DNA of 64,000 nt from Methanobacteriota archaeon (GTDB lineage: Archaea > Undinarchaeota > Undinarchaeia > Undinarchaeales > Undinarchaeaceae), in NCBI GenBank assembly GCA_002687935.1, contig NZBN01000002.1, positions 7,394-71,393 on the forward strand, in the 5' to 3' direction. Made by a program: the position numbers and the translations under genes. The notes beneath the pieces are model-generated. The model was given only the letters and a program-made list of their open reading frames with translations. It was not told the origin of the DNA and ran no database searches. This document shows, one piece after another, positions 11,084-33,902 of this stretch (position 1 is its first letter; each line of letters opens with the position of its first letter).

Positions 11084-12181
11084 TTATTCGAAAACCTTTT
11101 CTACAAACCAGTCCGGGTTGAATTCTTCAATATCCTCGTAGCCCTGCCCGGTTCCGAGATAAATTATCGGTTTTCCTGTCATATGACTTATAGATATACA
11201 GGCTCCTCCCTTGACGTCGCAGTCTGCCTTTGTCAGGACAGATGCGTCTATTCCCACTGCATCGTTGAAGCTCTTCGCCTGTTCTGACGCGTCGTTTCCT
11301 GTAAGCGAATCTCCAACAAAAATTGTTATATCTGGGTTGTTTACTCTTACAATTTTCTTTAATTCGTCCATCAAATTCGAGTCCGCATGAGAGCGTCCTG
11401 CTGTGTCTCCGAGTACAACATCAATCCCCTTTGCCTTTGCATGTTCAACTGCGTCATAAATTACTGCTGCAGCATCGGAACCTCTCTGTTGTTTTATAAT
11501 CGGTACTTTCAGAACCTTTGCATGGATGTCCAGTTGCTCTATTGCCGCCGCTCGGAAGGTGTCTCCTGCCGCCATAACTACGGTGATTCCCTGGCTCTGA
11601 AGCATTTGTGCAAATTTTCCAATTGTCATAGTTTTCCCTGAGCCATTAAAACCAACAAACAATATTAATGTCGGACGTTCTTCATTTTCCTTTATTTTTT
11701 CTATAATATTCAAGTCTCCTACATCTAGAGTATTTTCGATAGCAGCTTTTAGGGAGCTTGTTATTGCATTTTCTGCAGTATCTCCTCGTTTCAAATCCGT
11801 TTCAAGTAATATCTCTCGTGTGTCTGCAGTTATACTTTCAGTTACTTCCTTTGCAACATCGTTTTCAAGAAGAGCAAGCTCAAGTTCCCATAATATGCTG
11901 TCAAGGCTCTTTTCTGAAATGTGCCTCCTTGTTATTTTTTTGAGAATGCTTCGTTTCCGTTTCGGCTTTTCAGCTTTGGTATCTTCTATTTTCTTCTCTT
12001 CTTCAAGTTTCTCTTTCTTTGTTTCTTTCTTGGCTTTTGTTTTTTTCTTAGCAGACAGCTTTGGAGCTTCAAGGTCTTCTTCTGTTTCAACAAGAACTTC
12101 CTCTTCTACTTCCTCTGTTTCTGCCTCTTTTCCAGCTTTGTCGAAAAAGCCCTTTAGCTTCTTTTTAAGATTTCCAAACAT
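11084..12181 (-). CDS. ftsY: Signal recognition particle receptor FtsY with K/E-rich N-terminal extension
   Basis: SRP-GTPase motifs GFNGSGKTMT and DTAGR are present. It sits in the conserved pfdA-ftsY context. Confidence 0.9.
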   Translation of the reverse strand: MFGNLKKKLKGFFDKAGKEAETEEVEEEVLVETEEDLEAPKLSAKKKTKAKKETKKEKLEEEKKIEDTKAEKPKRKRSILKKITRRHISEKSLDSILWELELALLENDVAKEVTESITADTREILLETDLKRGDTAENAITSSLKAAIENTLDVGDLNIIEKIKENEERPTLILFVGFNGSGKTMTIGKFAQMLQSQGITVVMAAGDTFRAAAIEQLDIHAKVLKVPIIKQQRGSDAAAVIYDAVEHAKAKGIDVVLGDTAGRSHADSNLMDELKKIVRVNNPDITIFVGDSLTGNDASEQAKSFNDAVGIDASVLTKADCDVKGGACISISHMTGKPIIYLGTGQGYEDIEEFNPDWFVEKVFE

Positions 12182-18657: not shown

Positions 18658-19425
18658 ATGGCAAAACTAGGATATACCTATCAGGGAACTCAGGAAGGCA
18701 TTGTAAAAGCCTTGGTTAAATCAGAGAGGATTTCCCCGAAAGAGGCATATGAGGTTGCAAATGCTATTCGTTCTATGAGCCTTCCAAGAGCTGAAACATT
18801 TCTCTCAAATGTTATGGAACAGAAAGAAGCAGTTCCTTACCGAAGATTTAACAGAGGCGTTGCTCACAGAAAGAAGATTGGTCCTGGACGATATCCTTTG
18901 AATACCAGTAAGGGTTTTATGAAGGCTCTAAATCTTTTGAGGGCAAATGCAGTTTACAAAGGCATGGAAGCAGACAATTTGAAACTTTTCCATGTTGCAA
19001 CGCACCGTGGAGAAATAAACCCTGGAAGATACAAAGGCGGGGCACACAATCATCCAACTGTTCATATAGAACTTGTTGCCAAGGAGTCAGTTTCTGTTCC
19101 AAAAACAGAAGAGAAAACTGAAAAGAAGGCCCCTAAGGAAAAACCTGAAGCAAAAAAGATAGAAAAAAAAGCAGTAGAGAATACTGAGAAGAAATCCGAA
19201 TCTAAAGCTCCTGAGAAGAAAGAAGCAAAGGTTCCTAAGGAAAAACCTGAAGCAAAGAAGACGGAGAAAAAGAAAGAGTCTAAAGAAAGTGAAGAACTCT
19301 CAAAGGCTGATGCAAAACCAGAAAGCGAGAAAACAACGGACGAGCTCATAAATGAGGCAGAAGAGGTAATGGATGAAGAGCCAAAAGCTTCCGAAAACAG
19401 TAAAGAAAACGAGGTGTCAAAATAA
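18658..19425 (+). CDS. rpl22: Ribosomal protein L22 with a roughly 100-aa K/E/P-rich C-terminal tail
   Basis: The uL22 core is followed by KKAPKEKPEAKK-type repeats. Confidence 0.85.
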   Translation: MAKLGYTYQGTQEGIVKALVKSERISPKEAYEVANAIRSMSLPRAETFLSNVMEQKEAVPYRRFNRGVAHRKKIGPGRYPLNTSKGFMKALNLLRANAVYKGMEADNLKLFHVATHRGEINPGRYKGGAHNHPTVHIELVAKESVSVPKTEEKTEKKAPKEKPEAKKIEKKAVENTEKKSESKAPEKKEAKVPKEKPEAKKTEKKKESKESEELSKADAKPESEKTTDELINEAEEVMDEEPKASENSKENEVSK

Positions 19426-20285
19426 TGGCGATTGAAAGAAAGCTGATAAAGGAATCCATTGACAAAGTAAGAGTAAAGAAATTTGTTCTGAATAGTCTTG
19501 ACAATGTCGGAGTTGGTAATGTAGATGTCAAAAGAACACCACTTGGAACAAGAATTATTGTCACTGCAGTAAAGCCAGGACTCGTTATCGGAAGGAAGGG
19601 AAAGAACATACAGATGCTTACATCTGAATTGTCTAAGAAATTTAATATTGAGAACCCTCAGATAGAGGTTCAGGAAGTCAATGTTCCTGAATTTAATCCA
19701 TCAATTATGGTTGAGCAGTTGGTTTCTACTATTGAGAGAGGAATTCACTTTAGAAGGGCTTCAAATGGTCTTATCAAGAGAGTTATGGGTAAGGGAGCTC
19801 TTGGAATTTTAATTGAGATAAGTGGAAAACTAAGCGGAGAAAGGTCAAGAAAGGAGAAGTTTATGGCGGGATATATAAAATATTCTGGAGAAACTGCTCT
19901 CCAATCTGTTGAAACATCAGTGAAACAGGCTAAGAGAAAAGCTGGAGTTGTAGGTGTTAAAATTAGAATTGCACCACCTGCTGACCCAGTTAAACTGGCA
20001 GCTCTGGTCTTGGATGACAGTCAAATTATTTCAGAATCTGTGGATTTGGATGGAAAAGGGAGCAATGAAGAGTTGCAGAAACTCCAGGAATCTATTGGCG
20101 TTTCTTCTGATGAATCAGAAAAGACGGAGAAGAAATCCGAATCTAAAGCTCCTGAGAAGAAAGAAGCAAAGGCTCCTAAAGCAAAGCCTGAAGCAACGAA
20201 GACGGAGAAAAAAACTCCTACAAAAAAGACAAAGGCAAAAACAAGTTCAAAGAAATCCGAGGAAAAGAAGGAGGCTAAGAAATAA
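19425..20285 (+). CDS. rps3: Ribosomal protein S3 with K/E-rich C-terminal tail
   Basis: KH-domain uS3 core. The tail carries the same EKKSESKAPEKKEAK module as L22. Confidence 0.9.
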   Translation: MAIERKLIKESIDKVRVKKFVLNSLDNVGVGNVDVKRTPLGTRIIVTAVKPGLVIGRKGKNIQMLTSELSKKFNIENPQIEVQEVNVPEFNPSIMVEQLVSTIERGIHFRRASNGLIKRVMGKGALGILIEISGKLSGERSRKEKFMAGYIKYSGETALQSVETSVKQAKRKAGVVGVKIRIAPPADPVKLAALVLDDSQIISESVDLDGKGSNEELQKLQESIGVSSDESEKTEKKSESKAPEKKEAKAPKAKPEATKTEKKTPTKKTKAKTSSKKSEEKKEAKK

Positions 20286-20497
20286 TGGTTCTTCTGAGAA
20301 ACAGTGAGATAATGGAAATGTCTGAGAAGGTTATGCAGGAGAAGTTAATCGAGATGCGGAAAGAGCTTCTTACAGAGTACACAAAACTCTCTGCAGGTGG
20401 GGTTGCAGAAAATGCAGGAAAACTCTCTGAAATGAAAAAAACAATCGCAAGAATAAAAACAATAGGAGGTATTAAAGGCTACAAAATCAATGGCTGA
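20285..20497 (+). CDS. rpl29: Ribosomal protein L29
   Basis: 70 aa in the uL29 position. Confidence 0.8.
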   Translation: MVLLRNSEIMEMSEKVMQEKLIEMRKELLTEYTKLSAGGVAENAGKLSEMKKTIARIKTIGGIKGYKING

Positions 20498-20786: not shown

Positions 20787-21061
20787 TTTCTGAAAAGAAC
20801 ATTGTTCAACACGAGCTTATAGGGCTGGAAGTGGAGGTGCTTGAGTGCACAGATGCCAGTAAAAAAGGCCTACAAGGTACCGTAATCGACGAAACACAAA
20901 GTACATTAATACTGTCCGATACAAAAGGCGAGTCAAAACGTATTCCCAAGGCTGAATGCACCTTTCGCTTTTCGCTGAAGGGGGACAAAATCTATGTCCT
21001 TGGAACTCTTCTTGTGGGGAGATCTGCGGACAGAACTAAAAAAAGACTAAAAAAATGGTAA
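20783..21061 (+). CDS. rnp1: RNase P protein component 1 (Rpp29/Pop4)
   Basis: HELIGLEVEVL motif and conserved position. Confidence 0.75.
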   Translation: MISEKNIVQHELIGLEVEVLECTDASKKGLQGTVIDETQSTLILSDTKGESKRIPKAECTFRFSLKGDKIYVLGTLLVGRSADRTKKRLKKW

Positions 21062-21402
21062 AAAAAGAAGAAAAAAGCAAAACTGCTCCAAAAGCAGCAG
21101 AGAAGAAAAGCACAGCTCCAGCGGAGCCTGAAATAACTTCTCTTAACTTTTCCACTAAAGGACATCCCTTTAGAGCTATTGTTGTTTCAGATAAAATGAA
21201 AAATAGTGCAGTCGTTGTCAGACACTTTGTCCGAAAAATAACTAAATTCGAGCGATATGAAAAACGTACAACTCGGCTTACCGTTCACAATCCTGAAAGT
21301 ATCTCAGCAAAAACAGGGGATGAGGTCATTGTACAGAGTTGCAGACCTATTAGCAAGACAAAGAGTCACACAATAATCAGTGTATTGTCGAGGAGCGAAT
21401 AA
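21055..21402 (+). CDS. rps17: Ribosomal protein S17 (K-rich N-terminal extension)
   Basis: uS17 OB-fold core in the conserved position. Confidence 0.85.
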   Translation: MVKKEEKSKTAPKAAEKKSTAPAEPEITSLNFSTKGHPFRAIVVSDKMKNSAVVVRHFVRKITKFERYEKRTTRLTVHNPESISAKTGDEVIVQSCRPISKTKSHTIISVLSRSE

Positions 21403-21832: not shown

Positions 21833-22335
21833 AGGCAAATTGGTCAACAAGCTGGCTAAGTTCAAAACAACCAAGAAAACAGAGGAAGTATCTGTATAAT
21901 GCTCCTATGCATGCCAGACAGCGTCTTATTTCATCTCACCTCGACAAGAAGCTCAGGGAAAAGCTCGGAACACGTTCAATATCTGTAAGAAAGGGAGATG
22001 AAGTTAAAATAATGAGGGGTTCTTTGAAGGGACTTAAAGGTAAAATTCTCGAGGTTAACTTGGAAACTGGTCGTGTTCAGATAGAGGGTCAGACTCGGGA
22101 CAAGGTAGCCGGTGGAAAGGCAGCTATTACATTCCTTCCTTCAAATCTCTTAGTTACTTCACTGAATACTTCAGATAAGCTTCGTTTTAAGAGGGTTGCA
22201 AAATCAAAGAGACCTGAACTCAAGGCAGTTTCTCCGAAGAAAAGTCCTAAAAAAGAAGGTTCCAATACTGAAAAGAAGGATGAAAAACCTGAGGTCAAAT
22301 CAGATTCAAAAAGTTCAAAGGAGGAAAAGAAATAA
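21829..22335 (+). CDS. rpl24: Ribosomal protein L24 with K/E-rich C-terminal tail
   Basis: SKQPRKQRK...KGD KOW motif. The start overlaps the L14 stop (ATGA). Confidence 0.85.
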   Translation: MKANWSTSWLSSKQPRKQRKYLYNAPMHARQRLISSHLDKKLREKLGTRSISVRKGDEVKIMRGSLKGLKGKILEVNLETGRVQIEGQTRDKVAGGKAAITFLPSNLLVTSLNTSDKLRFKRVAKSKRPELKAVSPKKSPKKEGSNTEKKDEKPEVKSDSKSSKEEKK

Positions 22336-22988
22336 TGCCTCACATTAAGCGTCTAAACGCACCAAGAAGCTGGCCTGTAGAAAGGAAGACTCAGCCTTGG
22401 GTAACTAGTGCAGTTCCGGGAGCTCACACTACAACTGAAGGAATTCCCCTGCGTTCACTTATCAGGGATGTTCTGGGTCATGCTAGAACTGCCAAGGAAG
22501 TTCTCAATATACTGAAAACAAGAAAAATACTTGTCAATGGACGGGTTGTAACAGAGCCACGGTTTTCTGTCGGGGCTATGGATGTTCTAGATCTTGGTGA
22601 GGAAGGGAGATTCCTTGTTACTCTAACTCGCAGAGGAAAAATCCAACTGGAGTCTTACAGTAAAGATTACAGGTTTTGCAGAATCGAGGGAAAAACTCTT
22701 TTAAAGGGTGGTAAGGTTCAGTTGAATCTCTGGGGTGGTTCAAATATTTTAGTTCCAAAGGATGAGTTTAGTACAGGGGATTCTCTAAAACTTGGTCTTA
22801 AAGACGGCAAACTTTCAGGTAAAATCGAGCTAAAAACTGGAGGAAGTGCATATGTTCTTTCCGGAAACAATGTTGGAAGGACAGGTAAGATTAAGAACAT
22901 TGATGAAAAAACCAAAGAGGTGGTTCTGGAAGAAGGCAAAGACGAGTTCAAAACCCGTTTAAGCCGACTATTTCCTGTTGAGAAATGA
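22335..22988 (+). CDS. rps4e: Ribosomal protein S4e
   Basis: MPHIKRLNAPRSWP is the eS4 N-terminus. Confidence 0.9.
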   Translation: MPHIKRLNAPRSWPVERKTQPWVTSAVPGAHTTTEGIPLRSLIRDVLGHARTAKEVLNILKTRKILVNGRVVTEPRFSVGAMDVLDLGEEGRFLVTLTRRGKIQLESYSKDYRFCRIEGKTLLKGGKVQLNLWGGSNILVPKDEFSTGDSLKLGLKDGKLSGKIELKTGGSAYVLSGNNVGRTGKIKNIDEKTKEVVLEEGKDEFKTRLSRLFPVEK

Positions 22989-25390: not shown

Positions 25391-25971
25391 AAAGAAGAAA
25401 AATATCAGATTTCAGAAGGAGAAAGAGTAATCAGACGGATTATAGAAAGCGCTTGTCTCTTCTAAAATCAGGAAAGCCAAGATTGGTAGTTAGAAAGAGT
25501 CTCAAGAATATACAAGTTCAGCTTGTTAATTACACTGATAGTGGTGATACAATTCTTGCTTCAGCATCATCTACTGAATTAAATAAACTTGGGTGGAATT
25601 ATAGCTGTTCTAATATTCCTGCTGCATATCTTACTGGACTTCTTTGCGGAACAAGGTCAAAGGTAGCAAAAGTTAAAGCCGCTGTTCTTGATACTGGTTT
25701 GTATCGTCCAATAGCCGGTTCAAAACTGTATGCTGCTGCAAAAGGAGCCTCTGATACAGGTCTAGAAGTTCCACATGGAGATTCAGAGAAACTTTCAGAA
25801 GAGAGACTTTCCGGAGCTCACATAGCCAGCTATGCAGAGACTTTGGAAAAGGACAACAAGGAAAAATATGAGTCTCAGTTCTCTCACTATATTTCTTCAA
25901 AAACGAATCCAAAGGACATTCAAAAGCAATTTGAAGCAACTAAAAAGAAAATAATGGAGGCTAAGAAATGA
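25387..25971 (+). CDS. rpl18: Ribosomal protein L18
   Basis: uL18 position and length. Confidence 0.85.
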   Translation: MKRRKISDFRRRKSNQTDYRKRLSLLKSGKPRLVVRKSLKNIQVQLVNYTDSGDTILASASSTELNKLGWNYSCSNIPAAYLTGLLCGTRSKVAKVKAAVLDTGLYRPIAGSKLYAAAKGASDTGLEVPHGDSEKLSEERLSGAHIASYAETLEKDNKEKYESQFSHYISSKTNPKDIQKQFEATKKKIMEAKK

Positions 25972-26768
25972 GCAACGAAGAAAAGACAAGCCCAGCTGAA
26001 ACAAAAGTTGCTGCTCAAGCAACAGAAGAAAAAACAAGCCCCACTGTAACTAAAGCGACTGTTCCAGCAACAGAAGAAAAGGCAAAAACAGGAGCGCAGG
26101 GTGGCAAAAGAGAACGTTCAAAATTCGGAAGGCGTTCTTCTATTGATTTAGAAAATTGGAAACCTAAGACAGAACTTGGTCGGGAAGTTCTTGCTGGTGA
26201 CTATGAGTCACTTGATGTAGTCTGGGATAATGGAAAGGTCATCAGAGAGCCAGAGATAGTGGATTCACTACTTCCGGGGCTTGAAGAAAGAATATTAAAA
26301 ATTGGAAAGGGTCAGCGACCATTTAAATGGGTTCAGAGAATGACGGACTCAGGTCGAAGAAGTAAGTATTTCGTAGCAGCAGCTGTTGGAGATAAAAACG
26401 GCTATGTTGGTTTTGGAATTGGCAGAGCAAAGGACTTCAGTGGTGCAATTTCCCAGGCTATGCGAAAGGCAAGACTCAATCTAACTAAAGTTGAATTCGG
26501 AAGCGGTTCTTGGGATGAAGCTTCTTCTGAAGGAAAACATTCAATTCCTCATAAGGTTACTGGTAAGTGCAGTAGCGTAAGTCTGGATTTACTCCCTGCT
26601 CCTAAGGGAACTGGGCTTGTTGCTAACAAGATATCAAGTGATTTAATTTCACTTGCAGGTATTTCTGACTTGTGGACCAAATCTCGCGGTCACACTAAAA
26701 CAAGAGTTAATATGGCAGCTGCAACATTCAATGCACTCAAAAAACTAAGCAGGTATAACAATGGCTGA
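25968..26768 (+). CDS. rps5: Ribosomal protein S5 with T/E/K-rich N-terminal extension
   Basis: uS5 dsRBD core preceded by an ATEEKTSPTVTKATVPATEEK repeat. Confidence 0.9.
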   Translation: MSNEEKTSPAETKVAAQATEEKTSPTVTKATVPATEEKAKTGAQGGKRERSKFGRRSSIDLENWKPKTELGREVLAGDYESLDVVWDNGKVIREPEIVDSLLPGLEERILKIGKGQRPFKWVQRMTDSGRRSKYFVAAAVGDKNGYVGFGIGRAKDFSGAISQAMRKARLNLTKVEFGSGSWDEASSEGKHSIPHKVTGKCSSVSLDLLPAPKGTGLVANKISSDLISLAGISDLWTKSRGHTKTRVNMAAATFNALKKLSRYNNG

Positions 26769-29996: not shown

Positions 29997-30551
29997 ATGC
30001 CAGTAATTACTATCGGCGGTCCACCTGGGGCAGGAACTACCACTATTGCTAAAGCATTGGCTGAACATTTTTCTTTAAGATATATCTCAACTGGGGATAT
30101 TTTTAGAAAAATTGCAAAAGACCGTGGTATAAGTCTTAATGAGCTCAATAAGACTGCAGAAAGAGAAGTTGATGAATTGGTTGACAAACGCAGTAGAGAG
30201 GAAGGGCTTGCAGGTGATGTTGTAATTGACGGTGATATTGCCGCGTGGATAAATCCTGATGCTGAGTTTAAATTCTATTTCACAGCATCTCTGGAAACTC
30301 GTGCAAAGAGGATTTTTGGGGATTCAAAAATAAGACTTGCTGAAGAAAGGCAGACATTTGAAAATGTTGAAAGAAATATTGAGAAAAGGTTAGAGGATGA
30401 CAAGCGTCGTTATATGGAATATTACAGTATAAATCTTGATGATATGTCAATATATGGTCTCGTTATTGACACAGAAACACTTTCTGTCGAAGACGTTATA
30501 AAGACGGCAATAGACTATATTGAAGGGAAGGGAGTTGATAATGATGATTGA
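29997..30551 (+). CDS. cmk: Cytidylate kinase, archaeal type
   Basis: P-loop GPPGAGTTT. 184 aa. Confidence 0.8.
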   Translation: MPVITIGGPPGAGTTTIAKALAEHFSLRYISTGDIFRKIAKDRGISLNELNKTAEREVDELVDKRSREEGLAGDVVIDGDIAAWINPDAEFKFYFTASLETRAKRIFGDSKIRLAEERQTFENVERNIEKRLEDDKRRYMEYYSINLDDMSIYGLVIDTETLSVEDVIKTAIDYIEGKGVDNDD

Positions 30552-30909
30552 TGTTGGAAGAGTATGTACAAAGACTGCAGGAAGGGAAAACGGTAATATT
30601 TGTCTTGTAATCGAAAATATTGATGATATATTTGCAATAGTGGCCGGACCTAGTGTAAAGAAAAAAAGGTGTAATGTAAAACATCTTTCTCAACTTCCTA
30701 GGAAGCTCCTTGTTTCTAAAGGGGCTTCACAGGCTGATGCATCTCGGATTCTTGCAGAGGCAGGTCTTGTAGAGGGACTTGAAGTAAAGTCTCCTAAGAA
30801 AGAAGAAAAAAAAGCCCCTAAAAAACCTGTAAAGAAGGCTGAAAAAACCAAAGCTGTCAAAACAAGTAAAAAACCGGCAACGAAGAAAGCTCTTCCCACA
30901 AAAAAGTAG
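30541..30909 (+). CDS. rpl14e: Ribosomal protein L14e with K-rich C-terminal tail
   Basis: The core MIDVGRVCTKTAGRENG matches eL14/KOW. The ORF-track start is probably 21 nt too far upstream. Confidence 0.75.
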   Translation: MMIDVGRVCTKTAGRENGNICLVIENIDDIFAIVAGPSVKKKRCNVKHLSQLPRKLLVSKGASQADASRILAEAGLVEGLEVKSPKKEEKKAPKKPVKKAEKTKAVKTSKKPATKKALPTKK

Positions 30910-32596: not shown

Positions 32597-32680
32597 GCCG
32601 AGGTCGCATAATCTGGTATTGCGCTACCCTGGAAAGGTAGTTTCCTTCGGGATGTGTGAGTTCAAATCTCACCCTCGGCG
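32597..32680 (+). tRNA. tRNA-Ser (anticodon GGA)
   Basis: Cloverleaf folded by eye: acceptor GCCGAGG/CCUCGGC. Anticodon loop CUGGAAA gives GGA. Long variable arm. T-loop GUUCAAAUC. Confidence 0.8.
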
Positions 32681-32685
32681 CTTCG

Positions 32686-32911: not shown

Positions 32912-33436
32912 ATGAGGCACCAGTGGGTACCCATTTACTTTATTCCACATTCGCGCAGTTTCTCGTCCAAGCGTGGCTTTGCCGAATCACGACTTAGAAG
33001 GCGTCTTGAAAAACAGGGCTGGTCTGTCTGGAAAGGTCTCCTGGTTGGTGCTGTACGAATGCAAGATGATTATTCAACTGCAACGGAAAAGTATGAATTA
33101 CTTTCTAAATTTTTAGAAAAACATAGTGCGGAGCTTCTGGAAAAACTCCAATATTATTGTTCTGTTCATTTTGGCTTTCCTGATTTTATCTGTAACAAAG
33201 GTAGGGAATGGAAATTTGTTGAATGTAAGTTGGGCTATGAGCCTCTCAGTGAAAAACAGAAAAAATGTATAATGGAGCTTCAGCTTCTAGGTCTTAATGT
33301 TGAGGTTCATAAACTAGTCAGTAGCCATACAGGAACTCAGTCTGCAATGGTAAATTTAAAAGGAACTGGTAAAATAATAACTCGAAAACAACTAACTCTT
33401 AATGACAGGCTCTTTAGCAGGTGCCAAAACATATAA
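32912..33436 (+). CDS. VRR-NUC domain nuclease (PD-(D/E)xK superfamily); probable real start at the ATG at 33059
   Basis: GFPDFICNKGREWKFVECKLGYEPLSEKQKKCIMELQLLGLNVEV matches the VRR-NUC consensus (G.PD... fVEvK ... LS..Q..w...l...G..vev). Confidence 0.65.
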   Translation: MRHQWVPIYFIPHSRSFSSKRGFAESRLRRRLEKQGWSVWKGLLVGAVRMQDDYSTATEKYELLSKFLEKHSAELLEKLQYYCSVHFGFPDFICNKGREWKFVECKLGYEPLSEKQKKCIMELQLLGLNVEVHKLVSSHTGTQSAMVNLKGTGKIITRKQLTLNDRLFSRCQNI

Positions 33437-33463: not shown

Positions 33464-33625
33464 ATGTTAAAAGAACTAAGGAAAAAATTACAAAATCTTA
33501 GCAAGATAAAGAATTGTCCAGCATGCAGTTCTAAGGATATTACTTATGATTCTAAGGGTAAAGCACATCTCTGCAATGATTGTGGTGTAGATATTCAGGC
33601 TACTATTTCTTCTAAAACTGAGTGA
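33464..33625 (+). CDS. Small zinc-ribbon protein (53 aa; below ORF-track cutoff)
   Basis: Manual translation MLKELRKKLQNLSKIKNCPACSSKDITYDSKGKAHLCNDCGVDIQATISSKTE, with the pattern CPAC-x15-CNDC. Confidence 0.4.
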   Translation: MLKELRKKLQNLSKIKNCPACSSKDITYDSKGKAHLCNDCGVDIQATISSKTE

Positions 33626-33680
33626 TTTTAGGTCCTTTCTATATAGATAAAGTATATAAAGTCCTATGTACTAGGAGATG

Positions 33681-33902
33681 TGCTAGGAGGTGAAGGCAGC
33701 GCAAACCTTCGGGGGTGCGCTTTGAAGTGTTTCGAAAGAAACATGGATGTTGCTGTAAAAAGCAGGTCTTCGCTTTATAGCTCCCATAAAATGCTGGGAG
33801 GTGAAGGCAGTACAATTCTTCGGACTTGTACTCTGAAATATCTTGAAAGGGATATGGATGCTGCTGTAAAAAGCAAGTCTTCACAAAACAGCACTAAATT
33901 TT
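33681..33902 (+). ncRNA. Candidate structured ncRNA made of two tandem 111-nt units, each starting with a GGAGGTGA motif and carrying two hairpins
   Basis: Unit 1 spans 33681-33791 and unit 2 spans 33792-33902. Hairpin A is AGCGCA-AACCUUCGGGGG-UGCGCU versus AGUACAA-UUCUUCGGAC-UUGUACU (UUCG loop). Hairpin B is GUGUUUC-GAAA-GAAACAU versus AUAUCUU-GAAA-GGGAUAU. Compensatory changes preserve the pairing in both hairpins. TATA-like boxes lie at 33640-33656 and a T-tract at 33899-33907. Confidence 0.5.

Follow-up and report, generated by a model that had tools for sequence, protein, structure and literature searches.

How do two non-homologous ribosomal protein genes come to carry almost the same DNA in the parts that encode their C-terminal tails? 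The question is raised by the neighbouring uL22 and uS3 genes in a 64,000-nucleotide (nt) stretch of contig NZBN01000002.1 (assembly GCA_002687935.1), the whole of which is called the window below. The source organism belongs to the Undinarchaeales, within the DPANN archaea (Diapherotrites, Parvarchaeota, Aenigmarchaeota, Nanoarchaeota and Nanohaloarchaeota). We found that DNA has been copied between the two tails, that the copied module is confined to the lineage of the window, and that sharing between the same two tails recurs elsewhere. Very probably the shared stretch arose by ectopic gene conversion or template switching between the tails of two adjacent, co-oriented and translationally coupled genes, in a recurrent, concerted process. 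The features concerned are as follows (L numbers designate the loci compared).

18658-19425, forward strand: uL22 gene (rpl22), 255 amino acids (aa); globular domain at residues 21-141, C-terminal tail of about 114 aa
19425-20285, forward strand: uS3 gene (rps3), 286 aa; KH domain at residues 17-87, S3_C domain at 101-182, then an acidic and a basic tail
19176-19271, forward strand: module copy B in the uL22 tail (core 19186-19272), putative donor
20117-20212, forward strand: module copy in the uS3 tail (core 20127-20213), putative recipient
19126-19169, forward strand: partial copy A within uL22, the 3' part of the module (APKEKPEAKKIEKK), 38/44 nt identical to 19228-19271
20172-20180, forward strand: polymorphic patch in the uS3 copy, GCTCCTAAA in the window and L009, GCCCCTAAG in L010, L011 and L013
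19297-19422, forward strand: acidic C-terminal segment of uL22, residues 214-255, net charge -8, with the conserved motif SEKTTD[DE]LI.EAE.VMD.EP...SK

The two module cores agree at 81/87 nt with a constant offset of 941 nt, and the match extends to 88/96 nt (92%) between borders that are sharp at about 19176 and 19272. A preliminary description of the window had pointed to this near-identical 87-nt stretch, which is confirmed here, the uS3 interval given there (20126-20212) being one base low. The module contains an exact run of 46 nt, by far the longest direct repeat in the window; the next longest measure 23 nt (internal to uL22) and 16 nt. Both copies are read in the identical codon phase. 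Of the 29 codons, three differ synonymously and three non-synonymously; where the encoded residue agrees (26 codons), 23 codons are the same (0.88). The further claim that uL22 repeats the module internally holds for its 3' part, copies A and B lying 102 nt apart with 86% identity and an exact run of 23 nt at 19132/19234. It does not hold for the full module: only the K[A/V]PKEKPEAKK[I/T]EKK part recurs, and identity over the full 96 nt is 62-63%.

Both tails are rich in K, E, A and P, and their DNA is A-rich, internally repetitive and 72-75% purine, as would suit a resemblance by chance or by convergence between low-complexity tails of similar composition. We compared the observed match with a null in which the codons of both tails were shuffled (300 trials). 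The best 87-nt identity under this null was 48.5 +/- 2.2, with a maximum of 57, vs 81 observed; the local alignment score between the tails is 76, vs 13.6 +/- 1.9 for the shuffles, which never exceeded 23.5. Moreover, among 36 pairs of low-complexity K/E-rich segments in the window only uL22-uS3 stands out (z = 30), the other 35 being at background; pairwise sharing is at background for the N-termini of S17, L31e and S5, the C-terminus of L24, the tail of the open reading frame (ORF) at 30541-30909, and FtsY. Synonymous positions are as conserved as non-synonymous ones. Chance and convergence are effectively refuted by the shuffle nulls and the codon identity, and we give them next to no probability.

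A collapsed or chimeric assembly, which the preliminary description had named as a possible refutation, was also considered, given that the window comes from a metagenomic assembly and that repeats can mislead assemblers. At least 22 contigs of JGI, ENA and NCBI assemblies encode a uL22 protein identical to that of the window. Locus L009 is identical to the window across 1628 nt spanning both genes, and L010, L011 and L013, from other samples, differ by five single-nucleotide polymorphisms (SNPs) over this length and keep both module copies. The two-copy structure is thus found in independent assemblies, samples and centres, among them JGI and ENA contigs from different samples, with 0-5 SNPs over 1628 nt and no sign of a chimera. 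At 96 nt, with eight differences, the repeat falls short of the length of a sequencing read and of the k = 141 that the names of the ENA contigs imply, and both ORFs are intact and in frame. An artefact, rejected on these independent assemblies, is extremely improbable. Present population diversity is about 0.3%. Three of the five haplotype SNPs lie in the S3 tail, and two linked SNPs, 6 nt apart, turn the uS3 GCTCCTAAA into GCCCCTAAG, the exact state of uL22 copy A. These linked SNPs hint at a possible ongoing micro-conversion in the population.

The two genes lie on the forward strand in the order L3-L4-L23-L2-S19-L22-S3-L29-SUI1-RNase P p29-S17-L14-L24-S4e onward, as a standard archaeal ribosomal protein operon, and the start of uS3 overlaps the stop of uL22 (TAATG). 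uL22 was identified by Pfam family PF00237 (41.9 bits vs a cut-off of 28, residues 21-141), by the conserved S19-L22-S3 order and by its best PDB match, the archaeal uL22 4v6u_BS (1.4e-23). In uS3, PF07650 (56.7 bits, 17-87) is followed by PF00189 (75 bits, 101-182), and archaeal uS3 chains in the PDB match to about 1e-47. Both proteins bear C-terminal extensions of about 100 residues. Solved archaeal uL22 chains have 150-156 aa and their alignment to the window protein stops at about residue 143; one solved archaeal uS3 chain has 318 aa. In the AlphaFold2 model of uL22, the core has a predicted local distance difference test (pLDDT) score above 90, while residues 147-255 score 40-53 and have no secondary structure. 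With 25 basic against 19 acidic residues, the 72-aa K/E block of uL22 (residues 142-213) is mildly basic (net +6), and the uS3 tail consists of an acidic linker (net -9) and a basic end (net +13).

Histone H1-like tails are Lys/Ala/Pro-rich, with very few acidic residues and with S/TPKK-type motifs. The tails had been likened to them in the preliminary description, but the module is too acidic for this (11-12 K and 6-7 E in 29 residues, net +5). Neither the module nor the uL22 K/E block has the H1 composition, which only the distal S3 tail and the S3 repeat of the sister clade (KAKAPKKAAVKEK), described below, approach.

Judging from sequence, both tails are translated: the acidic motif of uL22 is conserved 3' of a variable K/E block, all tail indels are in frame, and the gene junctions overlap. 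The motif is kept in all Undinarchaeales lineages of the alignment, with S223-D228, I231, E233-E235, M238, D239, E241 and P242 invariant, even in L015, where the linker has a 21-aa deletion. Its conservation downstream of the variable block indicates that the reading frame is held through the uL22 tail. No helix or other confident structure was predicted for this motif in the AlphaFold2 model; it could be a candidate short linear motif, tethered near the exit tunnel. Established ribosome structures have the body of uL22 close to the exit tunnel on the solvent surface, and uS3 on the 30S head at the mRNA entry, so both extensions should project from the solvent side. A role that depends on composition is plausible, such as electrostatic contact with rRNA or mRNA, solubility, or a flexible tether for the acidic end of uL22.

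The ends of the tails have a feature of their own, at 20262-20287 and 22312-22337 and also at 19405-19427. A GGAGG Shine-Dalgarno-like motif for the next gene lies within the last codons of the S3 and L24 tails, and the TAATG stop/start overlap is seen at L22/S3, S3/L29 and L24/S4e. With both, the tail ends are dual-purpose sequence.

Age and direction of the copying

The genomes closest to the window are the metagenome-assembled genomes SRR5007147.bin71 (L001) and UBA55 (L002), and Ca. Undinarchaeum marinum falls in the same sister clade. Between the window and this clade, protein identity of the uL22 and uS3 cores is 91-92% and DNA identity 81-82%; at four-fold degenerate sites it drops to about 50%, i.e., these are nearly saturated. 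Five sister-clade sequences have long tails on both proteins, and these tails must therefore be old. Their S3 tail differs from that of the window. In place of the module it has a 13-aa (39-nt) tandem repeat, KAKAPKKAxVKEx, whose copy number varies (1, 2, 3 or at least 5) between genomes with 94-98% core identity (L001, L002, L015, L019; P0055-P0061). This variation, with all indels in frame, points to tails prone to recombination.

The module is absent from the S3 tails of all five sister sequences, and uL22-tail vs uS3-tail scores between the window and the sister clade are at background (11-17). At identical residues, identical codons make up 0.56-0.58 in the orthologous cores of window and sister clade and 0.88-0.89 between L001 and L002, and the module copies stand at 0.88. 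With a codon identity so far above the window-sister value, the copy must be much younger than the split from the sister clade. On the sequences compared, the copying of the module is specific to the lineage of the window; it postdates the split from the Ca. Undinarchaeum marinum/UBA55 clade and predates the present population. Metagenome and genome scans gave no lineage intermediate between window and sister clade, only sister types (L023, of the L019 type, and L024, of the L015 type) and distant DPANN, so the event can be neither dated more finely nor decisively polarised. Ancient, independently evolved tails in orthologues had been named beforehand as a possible refutation of recent copying; the tails are indeed old, and the shared module is lineage-specific. 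The proposal of a recent duplication or gene conversion between two ribosomal genes is thus borne out by the codon-level identity, the absence of the module from sister S3 tails, the independent assemblies and a similarity well above composition.

As to direction, we infer that transfer from uL22 to uS3, replacing part of the ancestral S3 repeat, is the favoured course, with fair probability from sequence comparison. In sister uL22 tails, 17/18 nt of the module's 5' end (ACTGAGAAGAAATCCGAA, TEKKSE) are matched inside a colinear block of 27/30, and 28/34 nt of its 3' part (...K[V/L]PKEK.E.K), also colinearly. The uL22 tail as a whole is colinear with sister uL22, and PKEKPEAKK is present twice in it. 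Colinearity of both module ends with sister uL22, together with the second PKEKPEAKK, is what favours uL22 as the donor. Sister S3 tails match only the central 17-22 nt of the module (AAGCAAAGGCTCCTAAA, KAKAPK). This piece is similar in uL22 as well and could have served as a microhomology anchor.

It is somewhat unlikely that the copying ran in the opposite direction or was mosaic, the module or its central K-A-P units coming from uS3 or short tracts passing both ways. Such a course would account for the centre of the S3 copy (AAGCAAAGGCTCCTAAA), 17/17 identical to the sister S3 repeat, and for the alignment of this copy, with permissive gaps, to two KAKAPKK units of sister S3 (68/86 nt). Similarly, a tract of about 40 nt shared in the sister clade (KKA[VI]VKE[KT]KAKTE) looks S3-derived in uL22, and in L037, one of the more distant lineages treated below, the short uL22 tail is almost wholly a copy of the start of the S3 tail. 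Against it, the TEKKSE and PKEKPEAKK ends have a colinear match only in the uL22 tails of the sister clade, the uL22 of the window has PKEKPEAKK twice, and the length of the uL22 tail is conserved with respect to the sister lineages, while the content of the S3 tail was replaced.

The orthology of the module ends to sister uL22 tail sequence also speaks against separate insertions of a small mobile or dispersed repeat into the two genes. That the module forms a discrete, fairly sharply bordered block in each of them could be read in this way, but the window has two full copies and one partial intragenic copy, with no third full copy in its 64 kb, and reading the sequence revealed neither terminal inverted repeats nor target duplications. 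We rejected a miniature element on copies, terminal repeats and target duplications within the 64-kb window, and consider it very improbable. A scan of the JGI metagenome collection with a 31-mer of the module gave 0 matches; this collection evidently lacks the population of the window, and the scan is uninformative on extra copies. A protein search with the 44-aa module peptide returned no scoring match, not even uL22 itself, owing to low complexity and database size.

Tail sharing in other lineages

Sharing between the uL22 and uS3 tails was also found in five further lineages, the sister clade and four loci (L034, L035, L037 and L038) reached via uS3 or uL22 homologues. The S3 cores of these four are 54-68% identical to that of the window and to each other, which places them as deep lineages. 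The shared segments (uL22 / uS3) are listed here.

L001, sister clade: KKAVVKEKKAK / KKAAVKEKKAK, 32/34 nt; score 32, null 13.0 +/- 1.7, maximum 22.5
L001 uL22 vs L002 S3: last repeat unit and its junction with unique C-terminal sequence, extending the L001 tract, 36/40 nt; score 30, a cross-genome comparison with no null
L002, L015 and L019, sister clade: EKKAKTE / ETKAKTE, 22/23 nt; score 20.5, p about 0.001-0.003
L034: EGAAGPRSDVDAKK / KGAAQVRGDVDAKK, 44 nt; score 24, p = 0.001; not low-complexity (GAA..R.DVDAKK)
L035: KEKKESKQKEEKKAE / KEKKESKPKKEKKAE, 42/49 nt; score 31.5, null maximum 21
L037: EEKPKTEEKKEAEAKPEEKP / EEKPKTGEKKEEGAKPEEKP, 54/62 nt; score 42, null 14.1 +/- 2.2
L038, marginal: AKPQEKDKEKPAPSEEK / SKLQKKEKIKPEPNEKK, 42/55 nt; score 23.5, p = 0.001

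Within-genome sharing in L001, in L002/L015/L019 and in each of the four deep lineages has p <= 0.003 vs codon shuffles. Codon phase agrees between the two genes in every shared segment, and the copies are separated by 0.68-1.1 kb; the segments differ from lineage to lineage, as do their positions along the tails. When the uL22 tails were scored against the uS3 tails in a 6x6 matrix, the within-genome scores (76, 32, 24, 31.5, 42 and 23.5) exceed every cross-genome score (mean 14.4, maximum 21), a ranking with a probability of 1/C(36,6) = 5e-7. Orthologous tails compared across deep lineages, uL22 vs uL22 and uS3 vs uS3, are at background (10-19). Non-orthologous tails within a genome are thus more alike than orthologous tails across genomes, which is the signature of concerted evolution: similarity is greater within genomes than between lineages. 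Synonymous sites are homogenised as well, as in DNA copying and not in protein convergence, with identical codons at 23/26 shared residues in the window, 9/10 in L034, 13/17 in L037 and 11/13 in L001.

In L002, uL22-uS3 is again the clearest pair, uL22 with the S17 N-terminus being marginal (p = 0.006). No sharing is seen in two more distant archaea in which both proteins are tailed (L041, p = 0.59; L004, p = 0.12). These two are the both-tail loci among the other DPANN examined (Woesearchaeota, Micrarchaeota), most of which have one tail of the two; L039 and L040 are without a uL22 tail. In L037 (uL22 at 976-1497, uS3 at 1501-2457), essentially the whole short uL22 tail, about 35 aa, copies the first part of the uS3 tail. 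From this case it appears that an older uS3 tail can give rise to a uL22 tail by donation.

The mechanism we infer would start from the low-complexity, purine-rich tail DNA of co-oriented genes less than 1.1 kb apart, in which microhomologies of 15-25 nt would seed exchange. Short-tract gene conversion, or template switching during replication or repair, would then copy segments between the tails. In the window, about 96 nt belonging originally to the uL22 tail would have been copied, with the reading frame kept, to a site 941 nt downstream in the uS3 tail, where they would have replaced part of the ancestral KAKAPKK-type repeat; the anchor was probably a pre-existing microhomology of 16-17 nt (AAGCAAAGG[C/T]TCCTAA). 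A reciprocal crossover between the direct repeats would remove the S3 core, with lethal effect, and conversions alone would survive. The tails of several deep lineages would exchange segments in this way, while the globular domains evolve normally. Exchange may be tolerated because the tails are predicted to be disordered, solvent-exposed and polyampholytic or polycationic, functioning by composition and not by exact sequence.

Alternatively, selection may keep the uL22 and uS3 tails alike for a common function (a shared factor, a modifying enzyme or a tail-tail contact), gene conversion being only the vehicle. The tails near the exit tunnel and at the mRNA entry would then be a co-evolving pair, with one lineage-specific peptide displayed on both; a partner common to the two might, for example, be a modifying enzyme, act as a chaperone or in assembly, serve hibernation or tethering or, in these DPANN archaea, take part in interaction with a host. 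The pattern is specific to this pair and recurs in six lineages, other K/E-rich tails of the same operon share no sequence, and the piece shared in L034 is not low-complexity. The shared segments, however, are wholly different between lineages and at different positions, with no conserved motif, and two distant lineages with both tails show no sharing. uL22 and uS3 are also the only long-tailed genes in all these lineages, 0.7-1.1 kb apart, and neutral proximity explains the pair as well. We consider selection for a common function quite unlikely, and the co-evolving pair presenting one peptide likewise improbable. If it were true, the two tails would change jointly through gene conversion, with the birth of a uL22 tail from an older uS3 tail as a corollary, and selection in place of proximity would imply an unknown shared function of tails on both subunits in DPANN archaea.

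Several points weigh against recurrent, neutral conversion between neighbouring tails. The weaker cases (20.5 in the L002 type, 23.5 in L038) are near the null maxima (19.5-25) and the top cross-lineage score (21). Local dipeptide structure and periodicity are lost in the codon shuffles, and this null may be somewhat liberal, a weakness from which the cross-genome matrix is free. The search for repeats covers about 64 kb of the genome, and a third copy of the module elsewhere is possible. The direction is not secure, the gapped 68/86 alignment allowing an S3-derived or mosaic middle of the module. Finally, neutrality is assumed, the three synonymous and three non-synonymous differences being too few.

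Other features of the window

K/E/A/P-rich extensions are a general feature of translation-related proteins in the source genome. Besides uL22 and uS3, the window has the following low-complexity K/E/A/P segments.

21055-21150: N-terminal extension of S17
22195-22332: C-terminal extension of L24
12921-13070, minus strand: N-terminal extension of L31e
30751-30906: C-terminal extension of the ORF at 30541-30909, which has no Pfam match
11927-12136, minus strand: segment in the N-terminal region of FtsY

In addition, uS5 (25968-26768) has an N-terminal extension of about 110 aa, rich in T, E, K, A and P, part of which is encoded by a 48-nt tandem repeat (25971-26080, 2.3 copies, 82% matches).

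An intergenic tandem pair of about 111 nt each was found at 33675-33896 on the forward strand, with 91-nt cores at 33681-33771 and 33792-33882 that are 78% identical. Each copy folds to the same closed three-hairpin structure, with minimum free energies of -43.8 and -35.1 kcal/mol (z = -4.5 and -4.9; none of 200 shuffled sequences was as stable), and compensatory changes are seen between them (GCGCA..UGCGC vs GUACA..UGUAC). There was no Rfam match, and the pair is a candidate for an undescribed structured RNA on the basis of the predicted folds. Upstream, tRNA-Ser(GGA) (32597-32681) is followed by an ORF of 174 aa (32912-33436) with a PD...E.K nuclease-like motif (...FPDFICNKGREWKFVECK...) and by a small CxxC...CxxC ORF (33464-33625); the three may be the remnant of an integrated element.

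Comparison with known systems

Gene conversion between paralogues is a textbook process, and duplicated prokaryotic genes such as tufA/tufB and the rRNA operons evolve in concert by it. The tails resemble tufA/tufB-type systems in that copies within a genome are closer than copies between lineages, synonymous sites are homogenised and the tracts are short and probably non-reciprocal. They differ in that the partners, uL22 and uS3, are non-homologous, only the tails take part, and the tracts, of 23-96 nt, involve a different segment in each lineage. Slippage or unequal recombination of tandem repeats has its likeness in the 39-nt unit of sister S3 tails, with 1 to at least 5 copies, and in the 102-nt-spaced partial repeat of uL22; the sharing between uL22 and uS3, in contrast, crosses a gene boundary, over 0.7-1.1 kb and not head-to-tail. 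The module also recalls KEKE motifs in its alternating Lys/Glu-rich, highly charged sequence. These motifs, proposed for protein association, reportedly require at least 12 residues with at least 60% K+E/D and no W, Y, F or P (Realini, Rogers and Rechsteiner 1994), and the three Pro of the module formally exclude it.

The preliminary description had called such tails unusual on archaeal ribosomal proteins; low-complexity tails are in fact common on archaeal S3, many homologues of which have 260-320 aa in our homologue search. In a survey of prokaryotic low-complexity regions, those of ribosomal proteins are dominated by A, E and K, archaeal S3 and FtsY are among the most frequent carriers, and lysine-rich ones are read as nucleic-acid binding (Ntountoumi et al. 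2019, PMC6821194). The window agrees with this survey in having such segments in S3, FtsY and several other ribosomal proteins; as far as its accessible text goes, the survey describes no DNA-level sharing of these regions between ribosomal proteins and does not have uL22 among the archaeal proteins named. Mosquito RpS6 and RpL23a have histone H1-like, lysine-rich extensions, independently evolved according to the title of the study (Hernandez and Fallon 2007, cited in PMC11764897). There too, Lys/Ala/Pro-rich low-complexity terminal extensions occur on two ribosomal proteins of one organism; the tails described here differ in sharing copied DNA, and their Glu-rich module (net +5 over 29 aa) is unlike H1 tails. 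The Ala/Lys-rich C-terminal region of uS19 in Parcubacteria, of the candidate phyla radiation (PMC9297842), is likewise a lineage-specific basic low-complexity ribosomal tail in an ultra-small organism with a reduced genome, although it concerns a single bacterial protein for which sharing between genes was not reported.

Our literature search found no report of tail sharing between ribosomal proteins. Set beside these systems, the tails themselves are ordinary, and it is the repeated exchange of tail segments between two non-homologous ribosomal genes that is apparently undescribed. For phylogenomics and annotation, the uL22 and uS3 tails of these archaea call for caution, being neither independent characters nor orthologous in the usual sense. 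Disordered ribosomal extensions would change not only by slippage in place, as tandem repeats do, but also by short DNA tracts from neighbouring unrelated genes, repeatedly and over deep time, which bears on the accretion of protein extensions on archaeal and eukaryotic ribosomes.

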